Positions 4,165-40,574 of a stretch of 64,000 bases of DNA are shown here, piece by piece; within the stretch, counting starts at the first letter, position 1, and each line of letters begins with the position of its first letter. This stretch comes from Candidatus Azambacteria bacterium (lineage in GTDB: Bacteria > Patescibacteriota > Minisyncoccia > GWC2-36-17 > WO2-46-25). The notes under the pieces are model-generated. The model was not told the origin of the DNA, searched no databases, and saw only the letters and a list, made by a program, of their open reading frames with translations. The DNA lies in contig JACQDT010000001.1 of NCBI GenBank assembly GCA_016200965.1, positions 3,544 through 67,543 on the forward strand, given 5' to 3'. The translations under genes were made by a program, and so were the position numbers.

Positions 4165-6180
4165 CTATACAAAAACAAAAAGCAACACTAACAGAGCGAT
4201 AAAGATATAGCTCAAATACACATTAATGTTGCCGCCCTGTATTTTTCTCATACTATTGCCCAAGGCAATCATCGCGTTGATAAACGGTTCATAGAGATAC
4301 CGCTCAAAAAGCGGCTCTATTTTTTCTTCGTAGCGCACCGCGGTTACTAAATACTGCGAGCCCTTCAATGTTTCGCGTTCAATGTTGTGCGTGGGGCGAT
4401 ACAAGCCGGAAAAGATGAGTTTAAATGGCATTGCAAAACTGCTTGCGGTATATTCCATCTTTGATTCTACAACCCGACCGCACGCCCAAGTGGGCGCCGA
4501 GCGCTTTCTATGCCTACCCCATATCATAAACATCAACAGCATGCCTGTGGCGATTATGCCGCCGACAAGCGCGATGACCGTAAAAGGAGAAATACGAGTT
4601 GGAAAGGACTGTGCCGGCATAATTGAAAACCAACTTGATACAATGGGATGCCCGAGATGAAGCCCTTCAACGATCGGCATAAACAGCGAAAAACCGATTC
4701 CCGGAATCACTCCCAACGCCACGCACGCGCACGCAAGAAATGCCATGCTTACCACCATGGGCTTACCGGCCTCATGCGCCTCCGAGGCTTCTTTGCTTCG
4801 CGGGAGCGCACAAAACACAATACCATATACCTTCGCAAAACACGCAAGCGCAAGCGCTCCGGTCAGCGCGAGAAGCGCCACAGAGATGCTCACCCCTATT
4901 TTAACCGCAATACTGTCGATCATGAGATTATAAAAAAGCCCTTGGAACACAAGCCATTCGGACACAAAACCATTCAACGGCGGGAGACCGGAAATCGCCA
5001 TCGCGCCGATAAGGAAAAAAACGGCAGTAAAAGGCATATATCTCGCCAGTCCGCCCATTCGTTCCATGTCATTACTGCGCATTATTTTTTGAACCGATCC
5101 GGCGCCTAAAAAGAGCAGGGTCTTGAATATGCTGTGGTTAAGCACATGGTAGAGCGCGGCGATAAGCCCAAGTCCAACAAACGTATATAGACCAAAGGCC
5201 TGAAAAAGGAGCGCCGAACCGATACCGATTAAAATAATCCCTATGTTCTCCACGCTATGATACGCTAAAAGACGCTTAAGATTATGTTCCATGAGCGCGT
5301 ACAACACGCCCATGATGGCGGACACGACTCCCACCGCAAGCACGAGCACCCCCCACCACCATACGGTGTGCGCGCCCAACAGATCGAACGCAAACCGCAC
5401 GATGCCGTATATCGCGATTTTAATCATCGTGCCCGACATAAGCGCGGAGATATGCGTTGGAGCCGCGGGGTGCGCCTCCGGGAGCCAAATGTGGTGCGGT
5501 ACCACTCCTGCCTTCGTGCTGAAACCGATGAACGCAAGTATGAAAATAAGGTTCTGTAGCCAAGGGAACATCCCGCCGCTTTGCAGGCGGAAATCGGAAA
5601 ACTGGAACGATCCTGTTTCTCTGAATAAAAGAAGAAACGCTATCACTAAAAGCGCCGTGCCAAAATGCGTCATTACCGCATACAAAAATCCTGCCCGCAA
5701 TGAACTTTCCTTTTTATACTCGTATGTAACTAAAAAGTAGGATACCACCGACATCAATTCCCATGCCGCAAGGAATACGATCATGTTATCGGCCGCCACC
5801 ACCAGCACCATGGAACAAATGAATGTATTATAAAGAAATCCTAATAAACCCATTGGATATGTCTTCTCATATTGAGATACATATTCAACCGCATATAAGG
5901 AAACTACAAAACCCGTGCCGCATACCAATAAAATAAAAAATGCACTGAGCGCATCCACAGAAAATACTACCGATGCAATTGAAAAAAGATGCCAGGATGA
6001 AAACTGGAACGTCTGATGAGATGCAAAAACAGAAAGCGCGAAAAGAATACCCGTCAGCGAGGCGCACATCGCTATAGTATGAGCGGCTATTTTGGCAATA
6101 TGGGGCGTGCGCCAAAATACGAAGCCCGAAAGCGCTCCCAGTAAAAACAAAAAAAGTGTGGCAAAAAAAAGAATGCCCAT
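4165..6180 (-). CDS. NuoL / HyfB-like large antiporter-type membrane subunit
   Basis: 671 aa, the same size as HyfB. Contains the HHIWLPEAHPAAPTHISALMSG motif. Confidence 0.7.
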   Translation of the reverse strand: MGILFFATLFLFLLGALSGFVFWRTPHIAKIAAHTIAMCASLTGILFALSVFASHQTFQFSSWHLFSIASVVFSVDALSAFFILLVCGTGFVVSLYAVEYVSQYEKTYPMGLLGFLYNTFICSMVLVVAADNMIVFLAAWELMSVVSYFLVTYEYKKESSLRAGFLYAVMTHFGTALLVIAFLLLFRETGSFQFSDFRLQSGGMFPWLQNLIFILAFIGFSTKAGVVPHHIWLPEAHPAAPTHISALMSGTMIKIAIYGIVRFAFDLLGAHTVWWWGVLVLAVGVVSAIMGVLYALMEHNLKRLLAYHSVENIGIILIGIGSALLFQAFGLYTFVGLGLIAALYHVLNHSIFKTLLFLGAGSVQKIMRSNDMERMGGLARYMPFTAVFFLIGAMAISGLPPLNGFVSEWLVFQGLFYNLMIDSIAVKIGVSISVALLALTGALALACFAKVYGIVFCALPRSKEASEAHEAGKPMVVSMAFLACACVALGVIPGIGFSLFMPIVEGLHLGHPIVSSWFSIMPAQSFPTRISPFTVIALVGGIIATGMLLMFMIWGRHRKRSAPTWACGRVVESKMEYTASSFAMPFKLIFSGLYRPTHNIERETLKGSQYLVTAVRYEEKIEPLFERYLYEPFINAMIALGNSMRKIQGGNINVYLSYIFIALLVLLFVFV

Positions 6181-28969: not shown

Positions 28970-29742
28970 ACCAAGTATATCAACTTCCAGAGCTCAACGC
29001 TTTCCGGCTGGATTTTGCGAAGCGTATGCTAATGATTTTGTGACTGTGTAGTGTTTTCATAAGGTATATAAGGCGTTGGGCGGCATGCGGTGTTCTTCTC
29101 TGTATTGCCATGACGAGCAACACGCGAACATACTGCTTTTTTGTTTTCAGTATGCGCTGCGCGGCATGGAGAGAAGAACACGCTGGAAGTTGTATTACTG
29201 GGCATAATCTTTTTATAAACCGAATGGCGTGAAAAGTCAAAAGCCATAAGGCAAAAAGAAGACCGGGAACTTTTTAGTCCCCGGCCTCTTTAAAATAATG
29301 TACTGCTATAAGTACGGGTTCCTCTGAGTGCTATCCGAGATCATCGGGGCTACGTCAGAGAGCCGCCATTGATATCCCAGCAATGATGTCCTATCGCCGG
29401 AAGATCCGCAAAGCTGATCGTCGCAAGCGCTATTTCCCTTCCGCCACGCCACACTGGCTATTGGCAGTTAGGACTATTACTCGGCTTATCCCATCGCCCC
29501 GGCCCCTTCATCAGGAACCGTTACGAAAGCAAAGTATCTCGCAAGGATCGAACTACCGGCTATGGCTGTACGCTCAATGTGCCTTTTGCAAAACAACCAG
29601 CGTTTCAGCCCACAGCTATATGAAGTAAAACCATTTTACCCAATGGCAAAAAAGTGTCAACGGCATAGTTTTCCACAGATGTGGATAACTACATTCTCCA
29701 CCCGCTAACATATTGCAAAAAAGCTGATAATCATGTAACATT

Positions 29743-30291: not shown

Positions 30292-31317
30292 ATGAAACAC
30301 CATCTTATCCGCATCCTGCATATCCTCCGCCACATCACGCCCGACGCAAAACAAAAGGCGGAATTTCGCCATGCGCTTGTGTTGCGCGTGCACGCAGATA
30401 CCGCGCACGAAAGAATGTCGCGGCGCGCAAAACCCTCATCCGTATTCTCGTTTTTCCGTCTTGCGCCCACTACGGCGGGCGTGATCGCCGCGGCTGTTAT
30501 CCTCGGAACCGGCGGCGTATCGTTTGCGGCCCAGAACGCGCTCCCGGGAGAACGCCTCTATCCCGTAAAGCTCGCGACGGAAAGAGCGCGCCTTGCCATG
30601 GTTGGCGACAAAGCAGAAAAAACAAAATTACGCCTCACTTTTGCTTCCCGCCGCCTTGATGAGGTGGATAAACTCATAGAAAAAAACGGAAACCAAAACG
30701 TAAACGCCGATGCCGCGCTCGCGCAATACGAGAAGGCGCTCAGCGAGAGCGAAAGCGCGCTTGAAGAAAATCAAGAAAAAGCATCCGAGATAGCGATAGC
30801 GATCAATGATGCCGCGGAGATACACCAGCGCGTCATCCAAAAACTCTCCGATAAGATAGAAAAACTGCCCTCCGCGGCGTCGCTTAAAGAACCCCTTGAA
30901 AATGCGCGGGAAAAAACGGAGGAAAGGGAAAACAGCGCGCTTATCGCCATTGTGTCTGCGACCTCCACGCAACCGGATCTTATTCCGGAAAGATTCGTGA
31001 AAAAATCCCGTGAGAAAGTACAAAAACGGGAACGGAACCTGCGCGAGGCGGCTCTTTCCGTTGAAAAAGCGATGTTAGAAGGCCGGGATGTGAAAGGTGC
31101 TGATGAAAAAATCAAAAACGCTCAATCCATCATCGACCGCGCGAGAGAAGATCTTGATAGAGGGGAAATCCGCGCCTCGCTGGAACAATCAATGGAAGCG
31201 GAGAAAATTACAAAAGAAATAAGAAGGTTTGAACGCAAGCGAGAGAGAGAAAAGGAGCGGGAAGAAAAAGAGACGGAATCTCGACGCAACGAAGATGCTC
31301 TTGATGAGAAGCATTAG
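30292..31317 (+). CDS. putative anti-sigma factor: membrane-spanning, with long charged coiled-coil extracytoplasmic domain (DUF5667-like)
   Basis: Immediately downstream of the ECF sigma gene. One TM helix (VIAAAVILGTGGVSFAA), then about 250 aa rich in E, K and R. Confidence 0.45.
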   Translation: MKHHLIRILHILRHITPDAKQKAEFRHALVLRVHADTAHERMSRRAKPSSVFSFFRLAPTTAGVIAAAVILGTGGVSFAAQNALPGERLYPVKLATERARLAMVGDKAEKTKLRLTFASRRLDEVDKLIEKNGNQNVNADAALAQYEKALSESESALEENQEKASEIAIAINDAAEIHQRVIQKLSDKIEKLPSAASLKEPLENAREKTEERENSALIAIVSATSTQPDLIPERFVKKSREKVQKRERNLREAALSVEKAMLEGRDVKGADEKIKNAQSIIDRAREDLDRGEIRASLEQSMEAEKITKEIRRFERKREREKEREEKETESRRNEDALDEKH

Positions 31318-32414
31318 CCGAATGTGAATGTAAACGCTTCAAGGCCGGGACTTTCCACAATCATTTCGAGTGTGTGCTCACCGTATTCCATATCCGCAAC
31401 GAGCTGATACAGTTCCTCGCCTTGCACAAATTTTGTGCCTTGAGATGTGCCGTCTTTAAAAATCTCAACCGTCACCCCGCCCTTCGCGTTCGCCACGAAA
31501 TAGACATTCTTTGCCTGATAGCGAAAGATAATTTTTGCGCCTGCGCTCCGGTTCTTCGCAAATTCATCCAAAAACTCCCACTCCCCCGTCAGGTACAGAG
31601 TATTCGTTTTGACGCGCTGCGGCTGCTCGAGCGTCTGCACGCCCTGCGTACCCGAATCCCCATTCCCAAGATAGGTGTTGCGCGCGGCGCCGAAATAGAT
31701 TTCGGGACTGCGCTCAAGCGAAAAGTCAACGTCCGCAACGCCCGTCGGTTTTGAAACATCTTTTGCAATTTCTCCCTCTACGCCGAGTACCGTCATGCGC
31801 TCTTCTAAAAGTTTTTGAATTTTCTGCTCCGTCTCTTCGTACGCTCCCTCGCCGGCGTGATCATACACAATATAGCCATCTATATCGATCAAATACTTTC
31901 TCGGCCAGAATCGGTTTTGATACGCATTCCATGTGGAAAAATCGTTATCAAGTACCACCGGATATTTGATTCCCAATCTCTTTGTCGCATCGAGAACATT
32001 TTGATAATTCTTTTCAAACTCAAACTCCGGCGTATGCATGCCGATAATAACGAAACCCTTGTCCTTATATTTTTCGTACCACGCGTTGAGATACGGCGTG
32101 GTCCTTTGGCAATTGATACAACTGTATGTCCAGAAGTCAACGAGAACCACTTTCTTTCCGATGAACTCCCCGATCGTAATCGGCTTTCCATCTGTGTTAA
32201 TAAAGCCATCGGGTGTCGTGATCTCTTTTGCAACCGGATAGCGATTTTGCTTTTCCTGCCTGCCGGCAGATAGGTCTTCTTTATGCACGGCTGTTTTTAC
32301 CTCTACCGTTCCCCCGATTATGGCGCGGGGAGGTTTTTGCGCGTTCAAATACACAATCGCGGCAATAACGACGCCGACAAGAGCGAATAACATTAACGTC
32401 TTTTTCGAAGTCAT
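31314..32414 (-). CDS. TlpA/ResA-like thiol-disulfide oxidoreductase with C-terminal extension
   Basis: N-terminal signal anchor. Thioredoxin fold with WTYSCINCQ (CxxC). Confidence 0.6.
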   Translation of the reverse strand: MTSKKTLMLFALVGVVIAAIVYLNAQKPPRAIIGGTVEVKTAVHKEDLSAGRQEKQNRYPVAKEITTPDGFINTDGKPITIGEFIGKKVVLVDFWTYSCINCQRTTPYLNAWYEKYKDKGFVIIGMHTPEFEFEKNYQNVLDATKRLGIKYPVVLDNDFSTWNAYQNRFWPRKYLIDIDGYIVYDHAGEGAYEETEQKIQKLLEERMTVLGVEGEIAKDVSKPTGVADVDFSLERSPEIYFGAARNTYLGNGDSGTQGVQTLEQPQRVKTNTLYLTGEWEFLDEFAKNRSAGAKIIFRYQAKNVYFVANAKGGVTVEIFKDGTSQGTKFVQGEELYQLVADMEYGEHTLEMIVESPGLEAFTFTFG

Positions 32415-32427
32415 CGGATTAAATGGT

Positions 32428-32500
32428 TTCTTTCTTTACCCCGTTAGTGATCCGCCCTGCCAAAGGCACGGCGTCAGCCGCCTCGGGGCGGCTTATCACT
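32428..32500. repeat. long hairpin overlapping the ccdA 3' end and the ccdA-tlpA intergenic gap
   Basis: ccccgttagtgatccgcc pairs with ggcggcttatcactaacgggg: a 13-bp perfect stem plus a 5-bp extension. Confidence 0.5.
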
Positions 32501-33271
32501 AACGGGGTTTACCGCGGTGGAAGCAAGATAGGAAAGAAACCCGGGGATAAGCGGCAACATACAGGGACTTAAGAATGATCCAACCCCGGCAAGAAACGAA
32601 ACTATGAAGTTAAAAATCGTCAGCGAGCTGATACCCTCGCCGATTGAGGTTACTAAATTCAGAGAAAGAAGAATATCGGTAAGAAACTGAAGATTTGCGA
32701 TACGGGAGAGAGTTCCTGTAAAAACAAACACGCCCATTGCGATGAGCACTGCCCCGAAAAAATACTGAAAGTAGAGAAGCTTCTTGCCCAAACGATTGAT
32801 GAGCGCCTGGGCCTGGTTCGTGAAAAGCCCGACCAAAAGGAATGGAATGCCGATTCCGAGCGTATAGGCGAAAAGCAGGAAAAACGCGCTCGATGCCGCT
32901 GTACTCGCAAGCGCCAAAATTGCGCCGAGCGCCACAGAAACGCACGGCGTCCAGCCAACGGCAAAGGCCGCGCCGAACACAAACGACGTCAGGTAGTGCG
33001 AATGGAACCGGCGCTTGACCGTGACGGTATGGCCGCGCTTCAGAAACGCCGGCGTAAAAAATCCAAGCAGAAAAAATCCGAACAGAATAATGATCACGCC
33101 GCCGATTCGGCCCAGCCATTCCTGAACCGTGTAGGAAGCGCTTGAAAGGACCGTCTGTAGCAGAACGCCGACCAGCGAGAATACGAGTGAAAAGCCCAGC
33201 ACAAAGAAAACGCTTGAGAGGAAAATGCTCCAATCGCGGCCGGGTTTTTCAGAAGACACTATTTGATCCAT
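32474..33271 (-). CDS. ccdA: cytochrome c-type biogenesis protein CcdA (DsbD transmembrane domain)
   Basis: FLAGVGSFLSPCMLPLIPGFLS and a second Cys-containing TM motif. Six or more TM helices. Confidence 0.8.
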   Translation of the reverse strand: MDQIVSSEKPGRDWSIFLSSVFFVLGFSLVFSLVGVLLQTVLSSASYTVQEWLGRIGGVIIILFGFFLLGFFTPAFLKRGHTVTVKRRFHSHYLTSFVFGAAFAVGWTPCVSVALGAILALASTAASSAFFLLFAYTLGIGIPFLLVGLFTNQAQALINRLGKKLLYFQYFFGAVLIAMGVFVFTGTLSRIANLQFLTDILLSLNLVTSIGEGISSLTIFNFIVSFLAGVGSFLSPCMLPLIPGFLSYLASTAVNPVSDKPPRGG

Positions 33272-33280
33272 GGGCTTGGT

Positions 33281-33880
33281 TTATCGAGCAATTGCTTTGT
33301 TAATTTCAGAAAGATACCGATCCTTTGACCATGAATCAGGCGCTTTTAGAATCTGCGTTCCTTTTTTCAGAAACACTTTCGTGTGCTGATAAGGAATGCC
33401 AAACGCCCGCGCAAGATTTTTTTCGTCGGCATCGGTGTCCGAATCGTTGTAGTTGACACGAAAGCCAATCACCTTGTCTGTGGTCAGCTCATTGAACGCA
33501 GACTGCATGACGGGAAACTCAAGCCGGCAAATCGGGCACCAGTTGGCATAGAAATACAGGACGATGAGCTTATCCGACGCTTTTGCCACGTCATAGTCCG
33601 GCTTGTTAAAATCAAGCACAAGCGCAGAAACTCCAGCCAAGATTTCTCCGGAGTATTTCACCATTGTCTCGTTCTTGCTCTCCAACGCTAAAGCTGTGGG
33701 GGACTTCTTTTCCATAGCTTCTCTGGCCATCCGGGCTTTCTCTTGCAAGGTGAAGGCTTTTTGGGATTGGAGAGCATAGAAGGCGGCACCCGCTATCACG
33801 AAGATCAAAACGATAATCGCAAGGTGTGCCAACAGCGCTATCCCCTGTGACGCATTATTCTTTTGCAATTTATTGACCAA
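33281..33880 (-). CDS. membrane-anchored thioredoxin-like protein (WCPIC active site)
   Basis: YFYANWCPICRLEFP thioredoxin motif. Paralogue of the upstream gene. Confidence 0.65.
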   Translation of the reverse strand: MVNKLQKNNASQGIALLAHLAIIVLIFVIAGAAFYALQSQKAFTLQEKARMAREAMEKKSPTALALESKNETMVKYSGEILAGVSALVLDFNKPDYDVAKASDKLIVLYFYANWCPICRLEFPVMQSAFNELTTDKVIGFRVNYNDSDTDADEKNLARAFGIPYQHTKVFLKKGTQILKAPDSWSKDRYLSEINKAIAR

Positions 33881-34619
33881 TCGCTTTGTTTATCTCCGTA
33901 AGGTAGCGTGCCTTATCCCATCCGTCGGGCGCTTTCAGAATTTGCTTTCCACTCTTCAGAAACACTTTCGTGTGCTGATAAGGAACGCCGAACTCGCGCG
34001 CGAGGTCTTTCTCATTGCTGTCGGTTTCGTTGTCGTTGTAACTGACCCGGAAAGCCACCACTTTATCCGTCGTCAGTTCGTTAAACGCCGCCTGCATCTG
34101 TGGGAATTCCGCTTTACAAATCGGGCACCAGTTGGCGTAGAAGTAAAGCACCACCAACTTGTCAGACGCTTTTGCGGCGTCGTAGTCCGGCTTGTTGAAA
34201 TCAAGAAGCGGCGCGGACTTTCCCGCAAGCACCGTGCCGGAGAACTTCAGCATCGCGGCTTCTGGCTTGACCATAGTTCCGTCGGGCTTAATCATTGTTC
34301 CATCGGGTTTGATCATCGTCCCATCAGGTTTCACCATGGTTCCATCTGGCTTAACAATGGTTCCGTCTGGTTTGACCATCGTGCCGTCTGTCTTAACCAT
34401 AGTGCCGTCGGGCTTAACCATTGTGCCGTCGGCTTTGACCACGGTGCCATCCGATAATGTCTTCTCACCTGTGGGCGCTTGCGGCGCTTGCGTGGTTGGG
34501 GCCGGTGACGGCTGTGTACGCGTGGCGAAATATCCGACTCCGGCAATGACCGCTAGAAGAGCAACTATTGCGATAATGATAGGCATCGCAAACCCTTTTT
34601 CTGCATTATTATTTTTCAT
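33870..34619 (-). CDS. membrane-anchored thioredoxin-like protein with nine PDGTMVK heptad repeats
   Basis: YFYANWCPICKAEFP motif. N-terminal signal anchor, then nine consecutive DGT(M/V/I)(V/I)K(P/A/T) heptads. Confidence 0.65.
   Translation of the reverse strand: MKNNNAEKGFAMPIIIAIVALLAVIAGVGYFATRTQPSPAPTTQAPQAPTGEKTLSDGTVVKADGTMVKPDGTMVKTDGTMVKPDGTIVKPDGTMVKPDGTMIKPDGTMIKPDGTMVKPEAAMLKFSGTVLAGKSAPLLDFNKPDYDAAKASDKLVVLYFYANWCPICKAEFPQMQAAFNELTTDKVVAFRVSYNDNETDSNEKDLAREFGVPYQHTKVFLKSGKQILKAPDGWDKARYLTEINKAIGQ
34263..34451 (-). repeat. nine 21-bp tandem repeats encoding the DGTMVKP heptads
   Basis: Direct repeats of ggcttaaccat(a/t)gtgccgtc-like units, visible in the DNA. Confidence 0.8.
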
Positions 34620-34681
34620 AAATGATATGAGTTAATCTTTAATCTGTGACCTTTACTCCAATATACACCGCGCAACAATAA

Positions 34682-34701
34682 ATGTAAAACTTACTTTACA
34701 T
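34682..34701. promoter_or_regulatory. palindromic operator ATGTAAAACTTACTTTACAT overlapping a TTTACA -35 element (minus-strand promoter of the thioredoxin-ccdA operon)
   Basis: Inverted repeat ATGTAAA/TTTACAT. On the minus strand, TTTACA, a 17-nt spacer and TATATT follow. The same architecture recurs at 35382-35401. Confidence 0.5.
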
Positions 34702-34786
34702 ATGCCTGTGGACAAAGCGGTTTCAAGGAAGGAGAAAGAGGCGGCGCGCGCCGCCTCTTCAATCTCCCCGCAATACTTTGTCAGAG

Positions 34787-35311
34787 TTAAAAAGCTCCGG
34801 CAACTGCAATTGCGGCAGGAAGCCCGCCGACCGGAGACGGCGTCAGGCCATTGATAGTGTCTTCAACCAACACCACGACAAGGTTTACACCCGCAGGCCC
34901 GAGGGTTATCGGGGATCCAGCGTTTGGACCCGTGGTAAATCCCGTGGCGCGAAACCGCATCTCGCCGTTGCCGCCATCGGAAAAGATAATACTGCCCTCG
35001 TTCGCCAGCGCCCCCAAAAAGGCCTTATCGCCGGTATCTGTGCGCACGAACCAAACACCGTAGAAGTGTCCCGAACCAAACAGTTGCGGAGGCAACTTTT
35101 CCGCTTTCACTTTCCCGGTCAATACCGTTCCTTCAAGCGCAATTTTTGCTTCTCCTGTTGCAGCCGGAGCAGCACCTCCCGGGACTGAAGCAAGATCCAC
35201 ATGAATCCCTGCCGCATAGGTGATCCCGAAAAGCAATCCAAACAGCGCGATCGAGGTTCCAAGAAATATCACTCCATAGGACGAATTCTTTATTTGTTGC
35301 GTCAAGTACAT
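34787..35311 (-). CDS. secreted hypothetical protein (Gly/Ala-rich, beta-rich)
   Basis: Signal-anchor N-terminus. No recognisable catalytic motif. Preceded by the duplicated operator/promoter. Confidence 0.4.
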   Translation of the reverse strand: MYLTQQIKNSSYGVIFLGTSIALFGLLFGITYAAGIHVDLASVPGGAAPAATGEAKIALEGTVLTGKVKAEKLPPQLFGSGHFYGVWFVRTDTGDKAFLGALANEGSIIFSDGGNGEMRFRATGFTTGPNAGSPITLGPAGVNLVVVLVEDTINGLTPSPVGGLPAAIAVAGAF

Positions 35312-35381
35312 AGCCTATAGTGTTTTAGTAAGTTACCAATACTCGACCTTTACTAAAACAGTGTATACACAACCACAACAA

Positions 35382-35401
35382 ATGTAAAGTTGACTTTACA
35401 T
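35382..35401. promoter_or_regulatory. second copy of the palindromic operator ATGTAAAGTTGACTTTACAT, with downstream conserved CCTTGTGGATAA box
   Basis: Shares a roughly 70-nt conserved architecture with 34650-34720: cctttact ... tatacac ... ATGTAAAG..CTTTACAT ... CCTGTGGA.AA. Confidence 0.5.
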
Positions 35402-35423
35402 TCCTTGTGGATAACTTTACACT

Positions 35424-35669
35424 TTATTCTGCCAGGGCACTGTCCAATTTCTGTTTATCAAATCCCAGGATAGTAACTCTTGATCCATCGTCTTTGGTCA
35501 TGACCGTAAACGGCACTCCCATTTGTCCTGACTCGGCTATCATTTCTTCAATGGCTTTCGGATCCTTGTCAACATAGATTTCCTCAAACGGTATTCCCTT
35601 GGACCCTAGGTATTCCGCTTCCATTTTGCAGTACGGACGGGTTGTTGTTTTGTATATTTTTATTGTCAT
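35424..35669 (-). CDS. glutaredoxin-fold small protein with single active-site Cys (RPYC)
   Basis: 81 aa. KIYKTTTRPYCKMEAEYL ... GVPFTV glutaredoxin/NrdH-like fold, with the first Cys of CPYC replaced by Arg. Confidence 0.55.
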   Translation of the reverse strand: MTIKIYKTTTRPYCKMEAEYLGSKGIPFEEIYVDKDPKAIEEMIAESGQMGVPFTVMTKDDGSRVTILGFDKQKLDSALAE

Positions 35670-35691: not shown

Positions 35692-36057
35692 TTAATATTT
35701 CACTCGACCGTAAAGTAACCCGACAATTTTTGCCAAAATCATTACCCCTAATGTAACCGCGAGCCAAGCATCAAGTTCGTGTCTAAAGCTTTGAATGATA
35801 ATAGCGGTTACCAGCGTAGCCGTGCCGGCCAGAAAAGCAATGCGACCCGCCATCATTTTATGAAGACCTTCTCTCTCGTCTTTTGCGTTCTCTCTCCAAA
35901 TGAAGCTTGCAAACAGACTGAAGAGCACCACCAATCCCAGCACCATCATCATCAATAAAATGGGGGGCATCCAAAGCTCAAAGGGATTGAGGAATAAAAC
36001 GAGCAATGCGATCAGTACCCCAGACACAATGATTTCTTGCAAAAAGTTATTTTTCAT
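35692..36057 (-). CDS. small 3-4 TM membrane protein, co-transcribed with the XRE regulator
   Basis: Hydrophobic 121-aa ORF overlapping the stop of the upstream HTH gene. Classic pairing of an XRE regulator with a small membrane protein. Confidence 0.4.
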
Positions 36058-36295
36058 ATTTGATAGAGAAAATTTCTTCTACAGATATTGGTTTTTTTCC
36101 ACCGGAGGCGGATCCGCCTTCGGCGGAGAAAAACTTTGCCATTTTAAGCGCCAAAAGCACCAAGGGAGTGTAATTCCCCTTCTCAATCGCGATAATTGTC
36201 TGGCGCGTTACGCCAACCGCATGGGCCAACTCTTCTTGGGTGATGCCGGTTTTTGTTCGTAATTCGTACACCTGATTCTTGATAATTTCTTTCAT
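36047..36295 (-). CDS. XRE-family helix-turn-helix transcriptional regulator
   Basis: [45 protein letters not shown] is a YozG/Cro-C1-type HTH. The C-terminus contains the in-frame palindromic element that encodes [10 protein letters not shown]. Confidence 0.75.
36099..36126. repeat. 28-bp GC-rich near-perfect palindrome ccaccggaggcggatccgccttcggcgg, in frame inside the XRE regulator gene
   Basis: Self-complementary around a central GGATCC. Second copy at 38018-38045. Confidence 0.8.
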
Positions 36296-36358
36296 ACATA
36301 TACTGATATGGTGCAGTATACATACTGAATGGTCAGAATGTCAAACATGCTTTACATC

Positions 36359-36387
36359 TTGACAGCAGATATTGGCAAAACTATACT
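36359..36387 (+). promoter_or_regulatory. sigma70-type promoter for arsR (TTGACA, 17-bp spacer, TATACT) embedded in the inverted repeat TGTCAA-N14-TTGACA
   Basis: Consensus -35 and near-consensus -10 about 35 nt upstream of the ArsR start. The -35 forms an inverted repeat with TGTCAA at 36339. Confidence 0.5.
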
Positions 36388-36420
36388 ATTAAGTAGTTTC
36401 ATAATTACTTAAGTATCACT

Positions 36421-36744
36421 ATGTTAACCAAAAAGCAAATAACCGAAGTCAAAGCGGGGCTGGGGACCAACACCGCCGGCTTTCCCTTGGTATTTGCGGC
36501 GCTCGGCGATTCCCGCCGATTCCATATCTTCAGATTACTTATGAAACATCATGATATCTGTGTGACCGATGTCGCCCGCGTGTTTGGCATGAGCGTCTCC
36601 GCCGCCTCGCAACAGCTGCGCGTGCTTGAACGGGTCGGCCTCGTGCTAAAAACGCGGATGGGCCAGATGGTGTGCTATGAGATCAATCAAGAAAATATCA
36701 TCGCGAAACAATTGGTCGCATTATTAAAAAAGTCAGATAAATGA
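36421..36744 (+). CDS. ArsR/SmtB-family metalloregulatory transcriptional repressor
   Basis: HIFRLLMKHHDICVTDVARVFGMSVSAASQQLRVLERVGLV winged-helix HTH typical of ArsR. Confidence 0.8.
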   Translation: MLTKKQITEVKAGLGTNTAGFPLVFAALGDSRRFHIFRLLMKHHDICVTDVARVFGMSVSAASQQLRVLERVGLVLKTRMGQMVCYEINQENIIAKQLVALLKKSDK

Positions 36745-37121
36745 ATAATTTTTTCAAAAAGACGGCAATAAGGTTCGCGCCGATTTTAGGCGCAGGAGCC
36801 ATAGGGGTCTGCCCGCTTTGTTGGATTGGCTCGGCATCGCTTCTCACCTATCTGGGGCTCGGTGCGCTTATCCCGTATTGGCGCTGGATCGGTTTTAGCC
36901 TCATCGCCCTGGGAGCGGCCGGGTTCCTCCTTGATTATCGCTCCCACAGAAATCCTTACCCGCTTATATCTCTTGCCCTCGGGGCGATGCTTCTCTATGT
37001 CGGCCGGTATGTATTTTTGAGCACGTGGGGCGCATGGCAAATTTGGGGGCCAGGTGCAGCGCTGATCATTGCAGCCGTTGTGTATAACAAATGGCTCTTT
37101 AGAAAACCGAGGACGATATGA
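36741..37121 (+). CDS. small membrane protein with CPLC motif in first TM helix (MerT/MerF-like metal-binding?)
   Basis: 4-TM 126-aa ORF overlapping the arsR stop. GVCPLCW motif at the TM1 entrance. Confidence 0.35.
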   Translation: MNNFFKKTAIRFAPILGAGAIGVCPLCWIGSASLLTYLGLGALIPYWRWIGFSLIALGAAGFLLDYRSHRNPYPLISLALGAMLLYVGRYVFLSTWGAWQIWGPGAALIIAAVVYNKWLFRKPRTI

Positions 37122-38143
37122 ATCTCCCAAAGCCAGCATCCATAATCATAGGGGGATTGTTCATTGCAGTCTTGGGATATTCCGTTTTGTCGCGCACTCT
37201 GTTCCAGAACGACTTTCCCATGCCGCAAGGCGGAGAAACCAAAAAAGAAACAAAGGGAATTATGATAACGGACGGCGTGAAACATAGCGTGCCGCTTGAT
37301 GAAATCATCGGAGGCGGCCCTTCAAAAGACGGCATACCGTCCATTGATAAGCCAAAGTTTGTTGTTCTTGCGGAAGCCAACTCGTTCTTGAAGGACTCCG
37401 AGCCGGGCATTGCGTTAGAGATGGGCGGCGTGAGCCGATTTTATCCGTTCCAAATTCTCGTGTGGCATGAAATTGTGAATGACACGATTGGCGGCACGCG
37501 CGTGCTGGTAACCTATTGCCCTTTGTGTCTTTCGGGAATTGTCTTTGATCCGGCAGTAAATGGCGAGCGCGTCGAATTCGGCACTTCGGGTAAATTATGG
37601 AATTCCAATTTAGTCATGTATGACCGCAAGACCGATTCGTTATGGTCGCAAATTTTGGGTGAAGCGATTGTCGGAGAGATGACGGGCATGAAGCTCGCGG
37701 TTCTCCCGTCCGACATGATCCGCTTCGGAGATTTCAAAAAATTGCATCCTGAGGGCAGCGTTCTTTCCCGCGACACGGGTACAACGCGCTTCTACGGCCA
37801 AGACCCGTACGGCGATTACTACACGACCCCGGGAACTTATTTCCCGGTCGGCAAAAAGGATGCCCGTCTTAATGAAAAAGATTTTGTCCTTGGCGTTGTC
37901 GTCAATGGAAAAGCAAAAGCATATTGGCCGGAAGCGGTGAAAAAAGCCGGCGAGGTAACGGATCGGTTTGAAGGAAAAGATATCGTTGCGCGATACGAAA
38001 AAGAGGTTGACGCGGTGCGTCTTTTTTCCGCCGAAGGCGGATCCGCCTCTGGCGGAGAGAAGAAATTAGTACGCATCAATTCATTCGGCGCGTTCTGGTT
38101 TTCCTGGGTTGCCGCGCATCCGGAGACGGAGTTGTACAAATGA
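37118..38143 (+). CDS. DUF3179-family secreted protein
   Basis: N-terminal signal anchor. YCPLC ... WNSNLVMYDRKTDSLWSQ pattern characteristic of DUF3179. The C-terminus contains the in-frame palindromic element encoding [10 protein letters not shown]. Confidence 0.55.
   Translation: MNLPKPASIIIGGLFIAVLGYSVLSRTLFQNDFPMPQGGETKKETKGIMITDGVKHSVPLDEIIGGGPSKDGIPSIDKPKFVVLAEANSFLKDSEPGIALEMGGVSRFYPFQILVWHEIVNDTIGGTRVLVTYCPLCLSGIVFDPAVNGERVEFGTSGKLWNSNLVMYDRKTDSLWSQILGEAIVGEMTGMKLAVLPSDMIRFGDFKKLHPEGSVLSRDTGTTRFYGQDPYGDYYTTPGTYFPVGKKDARLNEKDFVLGVVVNGKAKAYWPEAVKKAGEVTDRFEGKDIVARYEKEVDAVRLFSAEGGSASGGEKKLVRINSFGAFWFSWVAAHPETELYK
38018..38045. repeat. 28-bp GC-rich palindrome ccgccgaaggcggatccgcctctggcgg, in frame inside the DUF3179 gene
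   Basis: Near-identical to the element at 36099-36126 in reverse-complement-equivalent form. Encodes the same [10 protein letters not shown] peptide. Confidence 0.8.
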
Positions 38144-38147
38144 GAAT

Positions 38148-38393
38148 ATGAGAATCATCATTTACACAAAAACGGGGTGTCCGTGGGCGCGAGAGGTGAT
38201 GGATTTTCTGACGAAGCGTGGCATCGTGTTCGAAGAGCGGAACATGCTTGAACATCCGGAGTATCAAAAAGAAGCGCTGGATAAGTCGGGTCAATGGAAA
38301 TCCCCCACGTTGGACATTGACGGGCACATCCTTCCCGATTCGGATGCGGCGCAGGTTGAGGAATATCTTGATAAAAAGGTCGAAAAAAATTAA
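38148..38393 (+). CDS. glutaredoxin-fold small protein with single active-site Cys (CPWA)
   Basis: MRIIIYTKTGCPWAREVMDFL ... GQWKSPTLDIDG glutaredoxin fold, with the second Cys of CPYC replaced by Ala. Start trimmed to the internal Met. Confidence 0.55.
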   Translation: MRIIIYTKTGCPWAREVMDFLTKRGIVFEERNMLEHPEYQKEALDKSGQWKSPTLDIDGHILPDSDAAQVEEYLDKKVEKN

Positions 38394-38420
38394 TAAAATA
38401 ACTTAATCAAACAATACAAT

Positions 38421-38582
38421 ATGGATCAAAAAGACAGCAAAACAACCTGCATGGCATGTGCCTGCCCATGCGAAATGCATAAAGAGCACAATCATCCGGT
38501 TGAAAAGAAAGAGGCAAAGGTGTGCACAATGTGCGGTCACGAGCACAAAGCCGATGGCTCGTGCGATTGCGGCTGCAAGTAA
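38421..38582 (+). CDS. 53-aa Cys/His-rich metallothionein-like peptide (not in ORF track)
   Basis: MDQKDSKTTCMACACPCEMHKEHNHPVEKKEAKVCTMCGHEHKADGSCDCGCK has 9 Cys and 5 His in CxC/CxxC clusters. Sits in the metal/redox island. Confidence 0.5.
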   Translation: MDQKDSKTTCMACACPCEMHKEHNHPVEKKEAKVCTMCGHEHKADGSCDCGCK

Positions 38583-38591
38583 TCACCGATC

Positions 38592-39116
38592 ATGAATAGG
38601 GTTTTACCCATCATTATCGGAGTTTTGATTGTCGGGGGCGTGGGTTGGCTGGTAGTTTCCAGCCGCAACGCCCCCGAACGATCAAACCAGCAAGCGGAGT
38701 CAGAGAAAGCGCCGGATTTTAATCTCAAAGATTATAGTGGCAATACAGTGAGGATTGCGGATTTTCAGGGCAAACCGCTGGTGATAAACTCCTGGGCGGC
38801 ATGGTGCTCATTCTGCCGCAAAGAGCTCGTTGATTTTGTAACGGTTCAGAAAGAATTCGGCGACCGAGTCATTATTATTGCGGTTGACCGCGCCGAATCG
38901 CTCACCGTGGCAAAAAAATACACCGATGAACTCGGCGTAACCAATGGAATGTTGTTCTTGCTTGACCCTACCGATCCTTTTTTTCAATCTATCGGCGGGT
39001 TTTCAATGCCGGAAACAATTTTTGCTGATGCGAAAGGCACTATCGTATTCCATAAAAGAGGACCGATGAATGTTCAGGAAATGCGCGAGAAAATTCAACA
39101 GCTTTTATCGCGATAG
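38592..39116 (+). CDS. TlpA/ResA-like thiol-disulfide oxidoreductase
   Basis: Signal anchor plus thioredoxin fold with WAAWCSFCRKE (CxxC). Confidence 0.7.
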   Translation: MNRVLPIIIGVLIVGGVGWLVVSSRNAPERSNQQAESEKAPDFNLKDYSGNTVRIADFQGKPLVINSWAAWCSFCRKELVDFVTVQKEFGDRVIIIAVDRAESLTVAKKYTDELGVTNGMLFLLDPTDPFFQSIGGFSMPETIFADAKGTIVFHKRGPMNVQEMREKIQQLLSR

Positions 39117-39120
39117 ATAA

Positions 39121-39876
39121 ATGGACATTTCTCTCATCATCCCCGCGTTCATTGCCGGCGTTCTCACATTCCTTGCGCCATGCACACTTCCCTTGGTGCC
39201 GGGTTATCTGGGATTTATCAGCGGCGTTTCCATCAATGACCTCGAAGATCCGCAAAAATCCGCATCAGCTCGCAGAAAAATTTTTTTGAATGGACTTTTG
39301 TTTGTTGTCGGTTTCAGTTTTATTTTTATACTGCTTGGCAGCCTTTTTGGTCTGGGCGGCTCCGCTCTTGTTCACTATCGGATTTGGCTCTCGCGAATCG
39401 GCGGTATTTTCGTAATACTTTTTGGGCTTTTTATGATCGGAGTTTTGCGGCTGCCATTTTTGAATGTTGAAAAAAATATCAGAGCAATTATGGCGTTGAA
39501 GCCGGGCAATCCGGCAAGTTCTCTCATTTTCGGAGCAACATTTGCTTTTGGCTGGACCCCCTGCGTGGGACCTATTCTTGGTTCAATCCTGACGCTTGCC
39601 GCGGCGTCTGCAACAGTCGGCCAAGGAGCCTTTCTTCTTTCTATTTTCTCATTTGGCCTTGCGGCGCCCTTTCTCCTTATCGCCGCGGGTATCGGTTCCG
39701 CGTCTTCCTACATCACGAAGTTGAGCGGGTACCTTACTGTTGTTTCGGTGATCGGAGGGATATTCCTCATTTTCCTCGGCACTTTGCTTCTGACCAATAA
39801 GTTTGGCGTATGGATTGCATACTTCTACCAATGGTTCAGTTTTATAAACTATGATAGTTTGTTATATTACTTGTAA
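39121..39876 (+). CDS. ccdA: cytochrome c-type biogenesis protein CcdA, second copy
   Basis: FLAPCTLPLVPGYLGFISG and GWTPCVGPILGSIL motifs. Paired with the upstream TlpA-like gene. Confidence 0.8.
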   Translation: MDISLIIPAFIAGVLTFLAPCTLPLVPGYLGFISGVSINDLEDPQKSASARRKIFLNGLLFVVGFSFIFILLGSLFGLGGSALVHYRIWLSRIGGIFVILFGLFMIGVLRLPFLNVEKNIRAIMALKPGNPASSLIFGATFAFGWTPCVGPILGSILTLAAASATVGQGAFLLSIFSFGLAAPFLLIAAGIGSASSYITKLSGYLTVVSVIGGIFLIFLGTLLLTNKFGVWIAYFYQWFSFINYDSLLYYL

Positions 39877-39878
39877 TT

Positions 39879-40052
39879 ATGGTTAGGGTCATACAACAAA
39901 ACGAAAAAATACTATACCAGTGTGGGGAGTGTGGTTTCCACTATAAAGATCAAACACAAGCGGAAAAATGTGAGGCGTGGTGCAAAGAGCATCACAGTTG
40001 CAACATTGAGATCATCGCTCACGCAGTAGAAAATACGAAAAACAAGCAGTAG
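39879..40052 (+). CDS. 57-aa putative zinc-ribbon protein
   Basis: MVRVIQQNEKILYQCGECGFHYKDQTQAEKCEAWCKEHHSC has a CxxC...CxxxC arrangement. Starts 2 nt after the ccdA stop. Confidence 0.35.
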   Translation: MVRVIQQNEKILYQCGECGFHYKDQTQAEKCEAWCKEHHSCNIEIIAHAVENTKNKQ

Positions 40053-40064
40053 GTTCTCCTAAAA

Positions 40065-40574
40065 CTATTCAACGACGAGCTTCCCCACCATCCCCTGCTG
40101 GCGATGCTGGCCGACACTGCAATAATATTCGAAGGTGCCCGCCTTATCGGCGGTGAATTCCACGCTTGAGGACTTCCCTGCCTCAACCTGCGGTGCCTGC
40201 GCGTTGAACCCGTCCACCACCCAATCATGCGGCCATCCGCCCGCGTTGGTGAAATTAATCCTCACTTTATCGCCTTTTTTTACCCTGATCTCCGACGGGG
40301 TGAACGAGAAATTCTGCCCGCTGACACTGAACGTCTTCACTGCTCCCATCATACCCGCGCCCATCATCATTGAACCATCCGGCATCATGTGCGTGCCGAC
40401 GCCGCTTTCTTTCATCATATTCCCCATATCATGCGCAACGCTTCCTGGCTCAACGGCACCGCCTGATGTTATCGGCTTTTGAACGGGCTGCGGCAATGCC
40501 GCGGAACTAAAGTAATATATCCCTCCGGCAACTATCACCCCCGACATAACAAGCGCAAAAATCCCTTTTGACAT
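40065..40574 (-). CDS. cupredoxin (plastocyanin/azurin-like blue copper protein) with Met/His-rich N-terminal region
   Basis: Type-1 Cu ligands: H in GWPHDW, and C/H/M in YYCSVGQHRQQGM. Met-rich HDMGNMMKESGVGTHMMPDGSMMMGAGMMG segment. Signal anchor. Confidence 0.7.
   Translation of the reverse strand: MSKGIFALVMSGVIVAGGIYYFSSAALPQPVQKPITSGGAVEPGSVAHDMGNMMKESGVGTHMMPDGSMMMGAGMMGAVKTFSVSGQNFSFTPSEIRVKKGDKVRINFTNAGGWPHDWVVDGFNAQAPQVEAGKSSSVEFTADKAGTFEYYCSVGQHRQQGMVGKLVVE

Follow-up and report, generated by a model that had tools for sequence, protein, structure and literature searches.

We analyzed a promoter-operator palindrome that recurs in a 64-kb stretch of the genome of Candidatus Azambacteria bacterium (contig JACQDT010000001.1, positions 3,544 to 67,543; hereafter the window), where it accompanies a small regulator gene of the XRE family. 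On the minus strand, the order of features is as follows: a palindrome designated site C, the XRE gene, a gene for a membrane protein with four predicted transmembrane (TM) helices (the 4-TM protein), a glutaredoxin-like gene, a promoter-operator module (module B), a gene for a 174-amino-acid (174-aa) protein, a GC-rich hairpin, a second module (module A), and a thioredoxin/CcdA operon. The XRE regulator, an 82-aa CylR2-like protein with a Pfam HTH_3 domain, is encoded at 36047 to 36295. Its 121-aa membrane partner is encoded at 35692 to 36057, and the start of this gene overlaps the XRE stop by 11 nucleotides (nt). In this lineage the XRE operon ends with the gene for an 81-aa glutaredoxin-like protein (35424 to 35669; Pfam Glutaredoxin, E 2.7e-10). 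Module B precedes the 174-aa gene (34787 to 35311), whose product has no Pfam match and is predicted to be a secreted or membrane-anchored beta-sandwich protein. This gene is followed at 34736 to 34759 by a perfect GC-rich hairpin (12+12) and a U-rich tract, which form its predicted terminator. Module A precedes an operon of four genes (31314 to 34619) that, on the basis of Pfam matches, encode two membrane-anchored thioredoxin-like proteins of 249 and 199 aa, a CcdA/DsbD_TM protein of 265 aa, and a 366-aa protein with Redoxin and Thioredoxin_10 domains.

Three palindromes over three predicted minus-strand promoters

A first-pass annotation of this region had described a duplicated promoter-operator module with a palindrome overlapping a TTTACA -35 hexamer. 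We searched the window with the pattern ATGTAAAGNNNNCTTTACAT, written as half-sites ATGTAAAG-N4-CTTTACAT, allowing up to three mismatches. The search revealed three sites, a number that was reached in 1 of 100 shuffles and that compares with an expectation of 0.23. The sites at 35382 to 35401 (site B), 34682 to 34701 (site A), and 36338 to 36357 (site C) carry zero, one, and two mismatches, respectively. All three are intergenic and together span 1.7 kb. Scanning with a degenerate consensus at ≥13 of 16 positions returned the same three sites and none elsewhere in the window.

A promoter scan placed the -35 hexamer of each of the three minus-strand promoters within the promoter-proximal half-site of a palindrome. 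These promoters match the sigma-70-type consensus at 9 to 11 of 12 positions and have 17- to 18-nt spacers. At module A (promoter at 34660 to 34688, 10/12), the palindrome ATGTAAAGtaagTTTTACAT matches the consensus at 15 of 16 positions, and the -35 TTTACA (34688 to 34683) is separated by 17 nt from the -10 TATATT (34665 to 34660). At module B (promoter at 35360 to 35388), the palindrome ATGTAAAGtcaaCTTTACAT is a perfect 8-N4-8 repeat that aligns with orthologous modules in L118, L002, and L017 (L numbers are labels of related loci), with a -35 TTTACA (35388 to 35383), a 17-nt spacer, and a -10 TACACT (35365 to 35360). An extra TGTAAAG half-site lies at 35415 to 35421 on the minus strand, 21 nt upstream of the distal half-site of this operator. 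The palindrome at site C, ATGTAAAGcatgTTTGACAT, lies in the XRE gene's own promoter (36315 to 36344, 11/12), in which the -35 TTGACA (36344 to 36339) is part of the operator and is followed, after an 18-nt spacer, by the -10 TATACT (36320 to 36315); we propose it as an autoregulatory site.

Alignment of modules A and B bore out the roughly 70-nt architecture that had been noted in both regions, and the promoter scan bore out the overlap of palindrome and TTTACA at both modules. Our data likewise support the duplication of the module, a palindrome of the size suited to a dimeric repressor, and the two predicted targets, namely, the thioredoxin/CcdA operon and the secreted-protein gene at 34787 to 35311. 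The -10 element proposed for module A (TATATT, with a 17-nt spacer) stood, but that proposed for module B (TATACA at 15 nt) gave way to TACACT at 17 nt, which fits better. The TGTCAA/TTGACA repeat at the arsR promoter, which had been described as a different element, is the third copy of the palindrome (ATGTCAAAcatgCTTTACAT) and serves the XRE promoter; the XRE (minus) and arsR (plus) promoters diverge at this point, and TGTCAA and TTGACA are their -35 hexamers, placed back to back. A "cctttact" box is indeed present in both modules, but we rejected cctttact/AAAGGTC as a conserved element: it was found at 6 of 122 sites, about twice the chance level, and was limited to the closest relatives. 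In module B, a 16-nt inverted repeat (88%; TATAGTGTTTTAGTAA/TTACTAAAACAGTGTA at 35316 to 35331 and 35350 to 35365) joins the -10 region to a stretch just upstream of the start codon of the 174-aa gene; the greater part of one arm precedes the predicted transcription start.

The palindrome accompanies the XRE-membrane gene pair in related loci

The first-pass annotation had left the regulator open as ArsR or XRE and had expected a winged-helix protein. We assembled two samples. The first was anchored on the regulator and consisted of 80 Patescibacteria genome loci encoding XRE relatives (773 kb). The second was anchored on the motif and consisted of at least 120 metagenome contigs recovered by scanning for TCCACA-N4-7-ATGTAAAG-N4-CTTKACAT. 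The 80 genome loci contained 125 palindrome sites at a consensus match of ≥14/16, compared with 1 in shuffled sequence. These sites take up two fixed positions. The first lies 20 to 120 nt, and typically about 60 nt, upstream of XRE orthologs (55 sites); in most of the 80 loci, the 130 nt upstream of the XRE gene contain ATGT(A/C)AAG-N4-(C/T)TTGACAT followed by a -10 element. The second lies about 560 to 660 nt downstream of the XRE start, directly after the gene for the ∼121-aa membrane protein, and holds most of the remaining sites, which are usually perfect (16/16).

The palindrome adjoins the XRE-membrane pair in 77 of the 80 genome loci. Among the listed metagenome matches with at least 700 nt of upstream sequence, the XRE and membrane-protein genes lie directly upstream on the same strand in 83 of 98, and XRE lies directly downstream in at least 7 further matches. 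An ArsR homolog, by comparison, was found by tblastn in 1 of the 80 genome loci and in 1 of 120 among the metagenome matches listed. On the basis of this co-occurrence, the palindrome belongs to the XRE-membrane pair and not to ArsR, which we rejected as its binder. The question between the two candidates is thus settled in favor of XRE, and the expected winged helix is replaced by an HTH_3 protein of the Cro/C1 type. We consider it very likely, from these comparisons, that the palindromes are operators of the CylR2-like XRE protein encoded at 36047 to 36295.

Genes for Trx, CcdA, or Redoxin proteins lie downstream in 87 of 93 listed metagenome matches with enough downstream sequence, and tblastn detected thioredoxin-like genes in 57 and Redoxin/DipZ-like genes in 66 of the 80 genome loci. 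Of 62 genes that come first after the downstream site, 48 encode a Thioredoxin-domain protein and 8 a DsbD_TM protein; of 52 second genes, 35 encode a DsbD_TM protein, which is often fused to Redoxin and Thioredoxin_10 domains. MsrA is a divergent predicted target in three loci, and in L158 an additional module precedes a gene for an NDH-2-like oxidoreductase. These data show that the layout in which the XRE-membrane pair is followed by an operator-promoter and then by a thioredoxin/CcdA operon is conserved across Patescibacteria.

The sites themselves yielded the logo aATGT(A/C)AAGT-NN-ACTT(G/T)ACATt, in which both half-sites are fixed and the central bases vary. The distal half-site TGTAAAG is present at 60 of 63 target promoters. 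The proximal half contains TTGACA at 45 of 54 autoregulatory sites; at the 63 target sites, it contains TTGACA in 35 and TTTACA in 25. A -10 element (≥4/6) follows at a spacing of 16 to 18 nt at 62 of the 63 orthologous target sites. Five loci (L052, L058, and L061 to L063) have a second operator over the -10/+1 region. In one clade (L040, L048, L049, L050, and L064), an unspaced second palindrome, ATGTAAACTTACAT, lies over the XRE -10 in addition to the -35 operator (∼5975 to 5995).

The regulator resembles CylR2 and is paired with a conserved membrane protein

The XRE protein belongs to the XRE/Cro-C1-type regulators (PF01381 HTH_3, E 7e-12; 45.6 bits against a cutoff of 23) and has 3,166 homologs. 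Its orthologs are 70 aa long, and the 82-aa length in the window is due to a 12-aa in-frame insert. A phmmer search against the PDB placed CylR2 (1utx) among the best solved-structure matches (E 7.3e-7), and BLASTP aligned the two proteins with 44% identity over 54 aa (E 4e-13), consistent with a CylR2-like repressor. CylR2, a helix-turn-helix (HTH) protein of 66 aa, is reported to bind to the cytolysin promoter in homodimeric form and to act as its repressor (PMC3709268, PMC5454873). For induction by the CylLS'' peptide, the system needs CylR1, which is a small membrane protein encoded on the same transcript as CylR2, and the mechanism by which the signal is transmitted is unknown (PMC3709268, PMC5454873). 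We then compared the promoter repeats. In the cyl locus of an Enterococcus faecalis plasmid, the intergenic promoter region contains TTTTGTCAAGTG-T-CACTTGACAAAA, a repeat that can be summarized as TGTCAAGT-N3-ACTTGACA. Its half-site TGTCAAGT corresponds to TGT(A/C)AAGT in the regulon described here, so nearly the same half-site is found in both promoter inverted repeats, with a spacing that differs by 1 bp. Rumpel et al. 2004 reportedly described the cyl repeat as the site to which CylR2 binds.

The gene for the 4-TM protein directly follows XRE in 78 of the 80 loci, and in most of these its start overlaps the XRE stop by the same 11 nt as in the window. The protein has a charged loop with the conserved motif W(R/K)E..DERE..H(R/K)..AGR, and residues E56, D60, E61, D96, and K110 are invariant. 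By the positive-inside rule, the charged loop is predicted to be cytoplasmic and the NPFxxWMP and HxLDPW loops are predicted to face outward. No Pfam or NCBIfam family matched the 4-TM protein above threshold. The candidates for a curated family (DUF3180, DUF2157, DUF6773, and SdpI) were all sub-threshold and were rejected, and DUF2178 gave no match, although three homologs bear a precomputed PF09946 tag. Neither the XRE protein nor its partner has a conserved cysteine, and the XRE protein of the window lacks cysteine altogether.

The insert in the XRE protein of the window has a counterpart elsewhere. A GC-rich palindromic element (core GGCGGATCCGCC, with CCGCCGAAG-type arms) lies in-frame within two unrelated genes of the window, at 36099 to 36133 and 38021 to 38055, where it adds 10 residues plus (K/E)K to the XRE regulator and to a DUF3179 protein. 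The same core with the same 10-residue reading was found inside a Trx-like gene in L003 (L003:2924) and in L199 (L199:2821), and an XRE ortholog from Parcubacteria has SAKGGSASSGKK at the position of the insert. The element resembles the in-frame Rickettsia palindromic elements.

The promoter layout points to repression

How would the XRE protein act at these sites? We propose that an XRE dimer binds aATGTAAAGT-NN-ACTT(G/T)ACATt. Each site overlaps a strong predicted promoter of the sigma-70 type whose -35 hexamer is part of the promoter-proximal half-site, so the bound dimer would occlude this hexamer and block RNA polymerase, which would result in repression. Binding at site C would bring about negative autoregulation of the XRE/4-TM protein/glutaredoxin operon; site A would control the operon for the membrane-anchored thioredoxin, CcdA, and DipZ-like proteins, and site B would control the 174-aa secreted protein. 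We infer that regulation is probably negative from the position of the sites in the promoters, the shared autoregulatory layout, the second operators, and the analogy with CylR2. No activator would be required, since the -35 and -10 elements are near consensus. We take the variation of the proximal half-site to reflect a balance between the symmetry of the operator and the strength of the -35 hexamer.

The XRE protein might instead bind the palindrome and activate, in the manner of a class II activator centered near -40. Class II activators sit about 40 bp upstream of the start, which is also the approximate distance between the center of the palindrome and the predicted start. The weaker TTTACA hexamer at 25 of the 63 target sites would also suit an activator, and the XRE-type protein GakR is reported to regulate positively even though the repeat there overlaps the promoter. 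We nevertheless regard activation as improbable. The -35 and -10 elements are near consensus with 17- to 18-nt spacing, the same layout recurs at the regulator's own promoter, where it fits negative autoregulation, second operators cover the -10/+1 region in several loci, and the homolog CylR2 is a repressor (PMC3709268).

Some of the proposed operators lie within terminator-like hairpins

Operator B is embedded in an extended hairpin at the end of the XRE-membrane-glutaredoxin operon (35373 to 35410, minus strand; a 36-nt-arm inverted repeat), and the stem lies directly after the glutaredoxin stop codon. The RNA of module B folds with a free energy of -27.2 kcal/mol (z = -6.7). Orthologous sites in L064, L042, and L070 gave z values of -6.4, -4.4, and -3.7, respectively, with U-tracts that are clearer than that of module B. 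For module A, which has a GC-rich terminator of its own before it, no additional structure was seen (z = -0.1). At target sites directly after the XRE operon, the flanks of the palindrome are complementary yet variable in sequence between genomes (aaacaa/ttgttt, aaatac/gtattt, and gtgcgac/gtcgc) and are followed by a T-run. Of the 63 target sites, 12 had at least five extra contiguous pairs; none of the 54 autoregulatory sites did. Because the half-sites are fixed and the flanks covary, the core appears to be constrained by a protein and the flanks by structure. A search of Rfam over the modules returned only sub-threshold, irrelevant matches. These observations suggest that a module located directly after the XRE operon probably also terminates that operon.

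Could the palindromes be terminator hairpins and nothing more, with a 3' arm that carries the next -35 by chance and with no dedicated regulator? The long hairpins with T-runs at module B and at many orthologous sites (z values of -3.7 to -6.7) and the covarying flanks are what such an explanation predicts. The core half-sites, however, are fixed in sequence and do not covary. The same core stands upstream of XRE, where there is nothing to terminate and the flanks have no extra pairing. Module A retains the core without an extended hairpin and with its own GC-rich terminator upstream. In addition, the half-site matches that of the repeat located in the cyl promoter, whose regulator CylR2 is a homolog of the XRE protein. 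We therefore give this explanation very little credence and retain the palindromes as likely XRE operators.

The arsR side has its own predicted promoter and a candidate operator

The arsR gene (36421 to 36744, plus strand) is divergent from XRE and is transcribed from a predicted TTGACA-17-TATACT promoter (36359 to 36387). Between its -10 element and its start codon lies a 10-N4-10 inverted repeat, TTAAGTAGTT/AATTACTTAA (36389 to 36412), a candidate ArsR operator that is distinct from the XRE palindrome. Downstream of arsR, the plus strand encodes a MerC-like protein, a DUF3179 protein, a second glutaredoxin, a 53-aa Cys/His-rich peptide (38421 to 38582), and a second Redoxin-CcdA pair (38592 to 39876); a cupredoxin is encoded on the minus strand at 40065 to 40574. 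No gene of this metal/redox cluster (36421 to 40574), which also includes a DUF7128 gene, has an XRE palindrome. Since the palindrome is absent from the cluster, the two paralogous CcdA/thioredoxin systems of the window would be under different control. That the ArsR-family protein itself binds the palindrome is most unlikely: arsR is indeed the gene next to site C, and a single nucleotide separates the palindrome from the arsR -35, but arsR has an inverted repeat of its own, and its homologs are nearly absent from both samples of loci, nearly all of which carry the palindrome.

A DnaA-box-like element lies beside the proposed target operators

The first-pass annotation had noted a flanking sequence, CC(T)TGTGGA(C/T)AA, in both modules. 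This flank is the reverse complement of TTATCCACA/TTGTCCACA, a DnaA-box-like 9-mer. In module B the box TTATCCACA is an exact match located 4 nt upstream of the palindrome (35406 to 35414, minus strand); in module A the box TTGTCCACA has one mismatch, lies 5 nt upstream of the palindrome (34707 to 34715, minus strand), and is a recurrent variant in orthologous modules. These sequences fit the DnaA-box definition (TTATCCACA/TTWTNCACA).

Conservation of the flanking TGTGGATAA element is confined to target promoters. Of the 63 target sites, 36 have a box with at most one mismatch 3 to 8 nt upstream of the palindrome, compared with none of the 54 autoregulatory sites and 0.46% of random positions. 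Of the 30 exact copies in the 773 kb, 18 adjoin a palindrome, and intergenic copies before other genes are few. The box varies mainly at positions 1 and 3, and TCCACA is nearly invariant. As at known DnaA-regulated promoters, TTATCCACA equals the classical DnaA-box consensus; unlike at those promoters, a single box lies at a near-fixed distance of 4 to 7 nt from the operator of another factor, before envelope redox genes. Its sequence and placement suggest that a second factor, most simply DnaA, probably binds the box. Neither oriC nor dnaA was found within the window. That an unlinked global factor binds the palindrome, with XRE adjacent merely by conserved synteny, is hardly credible, for although the DnaA-box-like element points to at least one other factor probably acting, the association of palindrome and XRE survives divergent lineages and rearrangements (with the site before XRE, after XRE, or 1.5 to 3.6 kb away), the operator resembles that of CylR2, and there are no sites elsewhere in the window.

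An inverted pair of boxes, TTTTCCACA-ga-TGTGGATAA, was also observed at 29669 to 29688, about 55 to 75 nt upstream of a gene for an extracytoplasmic function (ECF) sigma factor (29743, plus strand). The next gene encodes a putative anti-sigma protein with a DUF5667 match, and the sigma factor gene and the thioredoxin operon are convergent. We saw no conservation of the box pair before the sigma homologs of L165 or L024.

The module of the window was duplicated, probably with capture of an acquired gene

In close relatives, exemplified by L118 and comprising 12 of the metagenome loci listed, the order is XRE-membrane-glutaredoxin-module-thioredoxin. Relative to these, the window has the 174-aa gene, the GC-rich terminator, and a second module inserted between the glutaredoxin gene and the thioredoxin operon. 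An alignment of modules A and B, in which the single modules of L118, L002, and L017 also fall into register, extends over the box, the palindrome, the -10 element, and a weakly conserved leader. Other lineages have extra modules before other redox genes (L158, L043, and L075).

The 174-aa protein has about 160 homologs, none of which lies in the 200 related loci. The homologs that we examined (L201 to L204, about 60% identity) are encoded in gene contexts with neither the XRE pair nor the palindrome, and we rejected the protein as a recurrent member of the regulon. Since these contexts are unrelated, the data suggest that the gene was probably acquired horizontally and then captured under a duplicated module. 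The neighbors of the L201 to L204 homologs include genes for OmpR/HisKA two-component systems, the bufferin genes BufA1/MbnB, OsmC, and a DM13-domain protein, which hint at a metal or oxidative-stress role. The AlphaFold2 model of the protein (predicted local distance difference test score, 86.9) is a beta sandwich. Assignment as a Cu,Zn superoxide dismutase was rejected: the fold matches were weak (E 5e-3; template modeling score, 0.4 to 0.47), and there are no conserved His ligands.

The first thioredoxin-like protein of the module A operon (33870 to 34619, minus strand) contains about nine tandem 7-residue units, DGT(M/I)VKP, encoded at ∼34200 to 34440 (Pfam DUF6799). The repeats sit between the membrane anchor and the thioredoxin domain.

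Discussion

The system most similar to the one described here is CylR1/CylR2. In both, a single-domain HTH_3 regulator of about 66 to 82 aa is co-transcribed with a small polytopic membrane protein, with no kinase or phosphorelay (a pair found here in 78 of 80 loci), and in both, an inverted repeat with nearly equal half-sites is located in the promoter region. The differences are also clear. The membrane partner described here is a 121-aa protein with 4 TM helices, whereas CylR1 has 3 TM helices and 94 aa; the predicted targets are envelope redox genes of the thioredoxin/CcdA/DipZ-like type, whereas the cyl target is a lanthipeptide toxin. No peptide signal is encoded nearby, and no lanthipeptide genes were seen in the related loci. 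Finally, the pair described here is chromosomal and phylum-wide, whereas cyl is carried on a plasmid or pathogenicity island.

Two further groups of regulators offer comparisons. The operators of phage-type Cro/CI (434, P22) and SinR-type XRE repressors overlap promoter elements, and the proposed system shares with them an HTH_3 dimer, a short palindrome with half-site centers about one helical turn apart, promoter occlusion, and negative autoregulation. It differs in that the -35 hexamer is built into the half-site and in that the regulator has no oligomerization or sensor domain beyond a short tail and would rely on its membrane partner. In Bacillus subtilis, the autorepressor SdpR and the polytopic membrane protein SdpI share one autoregulated operon, and upon a signal SdpI sequesters SdpR at the membrane. 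SdpR belongs to the winged-helix regulators of the ArsR family, and SdpI, an immunity protein, has a larger number of TM helices than the 4-TM protein. The organization as an autorepressor and a polytopic membrane protein in one autoregulated operon is common to both systems, but the regulator here is of the XRE type and not a winged-helix protein, and the SdpI Pfam matches of the partner are sub-threshold only (E 0.006 to 0.04).

By analogy with CylR1/CylR2, the translationally coupled 4-TM partner would relay an envelope signal through its conserved cytoplasmic loop and thereby release the repressor. We hold SdpI-style sequestration of the repressor at the membrane to be the most likely mechanism. 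The nature of the regulon suggests that the signal is probably envelope oxidative or thiol stress. Classical thiol sensing by either protein is unlikely, as neither has a conserved cysteine. A more far-reaching picture would combine all of these elements: the XRE/4-TM pair as a phylum-wide, kinase-free form of transmembrane signaling and a distant functional cousin of CylR1/CylR2, in which oxidation is sensed without cysteine (for example, by the near-invariant extracytoplasmic methionine of the WMP motif), the repressor is released or sequestered through the DERE loop, DnaA acts as a co-regulator, and the operator hairpin doubles as a terminator. As a whole, this picture is speculative and rather unlikely to hold.

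A number of points weigh against the interpretation of the palindromes as operators of a CylR2-like repressor-partner system. The operator assignment comes from sequence comparison, and the direction of regulation is deduced from position only, with GakR as a precedent for a positive XRE-type regulator. Homology of the partner to CylR1 was not detected (hhalign probability, 2.2%; E 0.022), the alignment being limited to a short "F..KDER" stretch after a TM helix. The regulator gene comes first here, which is the reverse of cylR1-cylR2, and the half-sites are spaced by 2 nt compared with 3 nt in the cyl repeat. The DnaA-box-like element is missing at 27 of the 63 target sites, and the module B hairpin is followed by a weak, only moderately U-rich tract, UUGUGUAUACACUGUUUU. 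The taxonomic breadth is approximate, and some records name taxa other than Patescibacteria, e.g., "Gammaproteobacteria."

An XRE dimer operator placed over a promoter, autoregulation, and a CylR2-type repressor with a membrane partner are all well known. What is distinct here is the partner protein, the regulon (extracytoplasmic thiol-disulfide and methionine-sulfoxide repair), its breadth, the DnaA-box-like co-element, and the overlap of terminator and operator. In our search of the full-text literature, we found neither an account of this regulon nor a paper that connects CylR2 with Patescibacteria.

Patescibacteria (the candidate phyla radiation, CPR) have tiny genomes that encode few regulators, and regulons for which the operator is defined have hardly been described in them. 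The present analysis defines, across many CPR classes, a regulator, its likely operator, the promoter layout, and the target genes, which encode extracytoplasmic thioredoxin, CcdA/DipZ, and sometimes MsrA or glutaredoxin. Control of envelope redox repair in CPR thereby becomes directly testable with oligonucleotides and purified 70-aa proteins. The hundreds of natural pairs of a CylR2-like repressor and a membrane partner also offer material for coevolution analysis and complex prediction that may bear on how a signal passes from CylR1 to CylR2. The DnaA-box-like co-element is an unexpected lead: if the pair acts as proposed and DnaA is indeed a co-regulator, the repair of envelope thiols in these bacteria would be tied to the state of replication.

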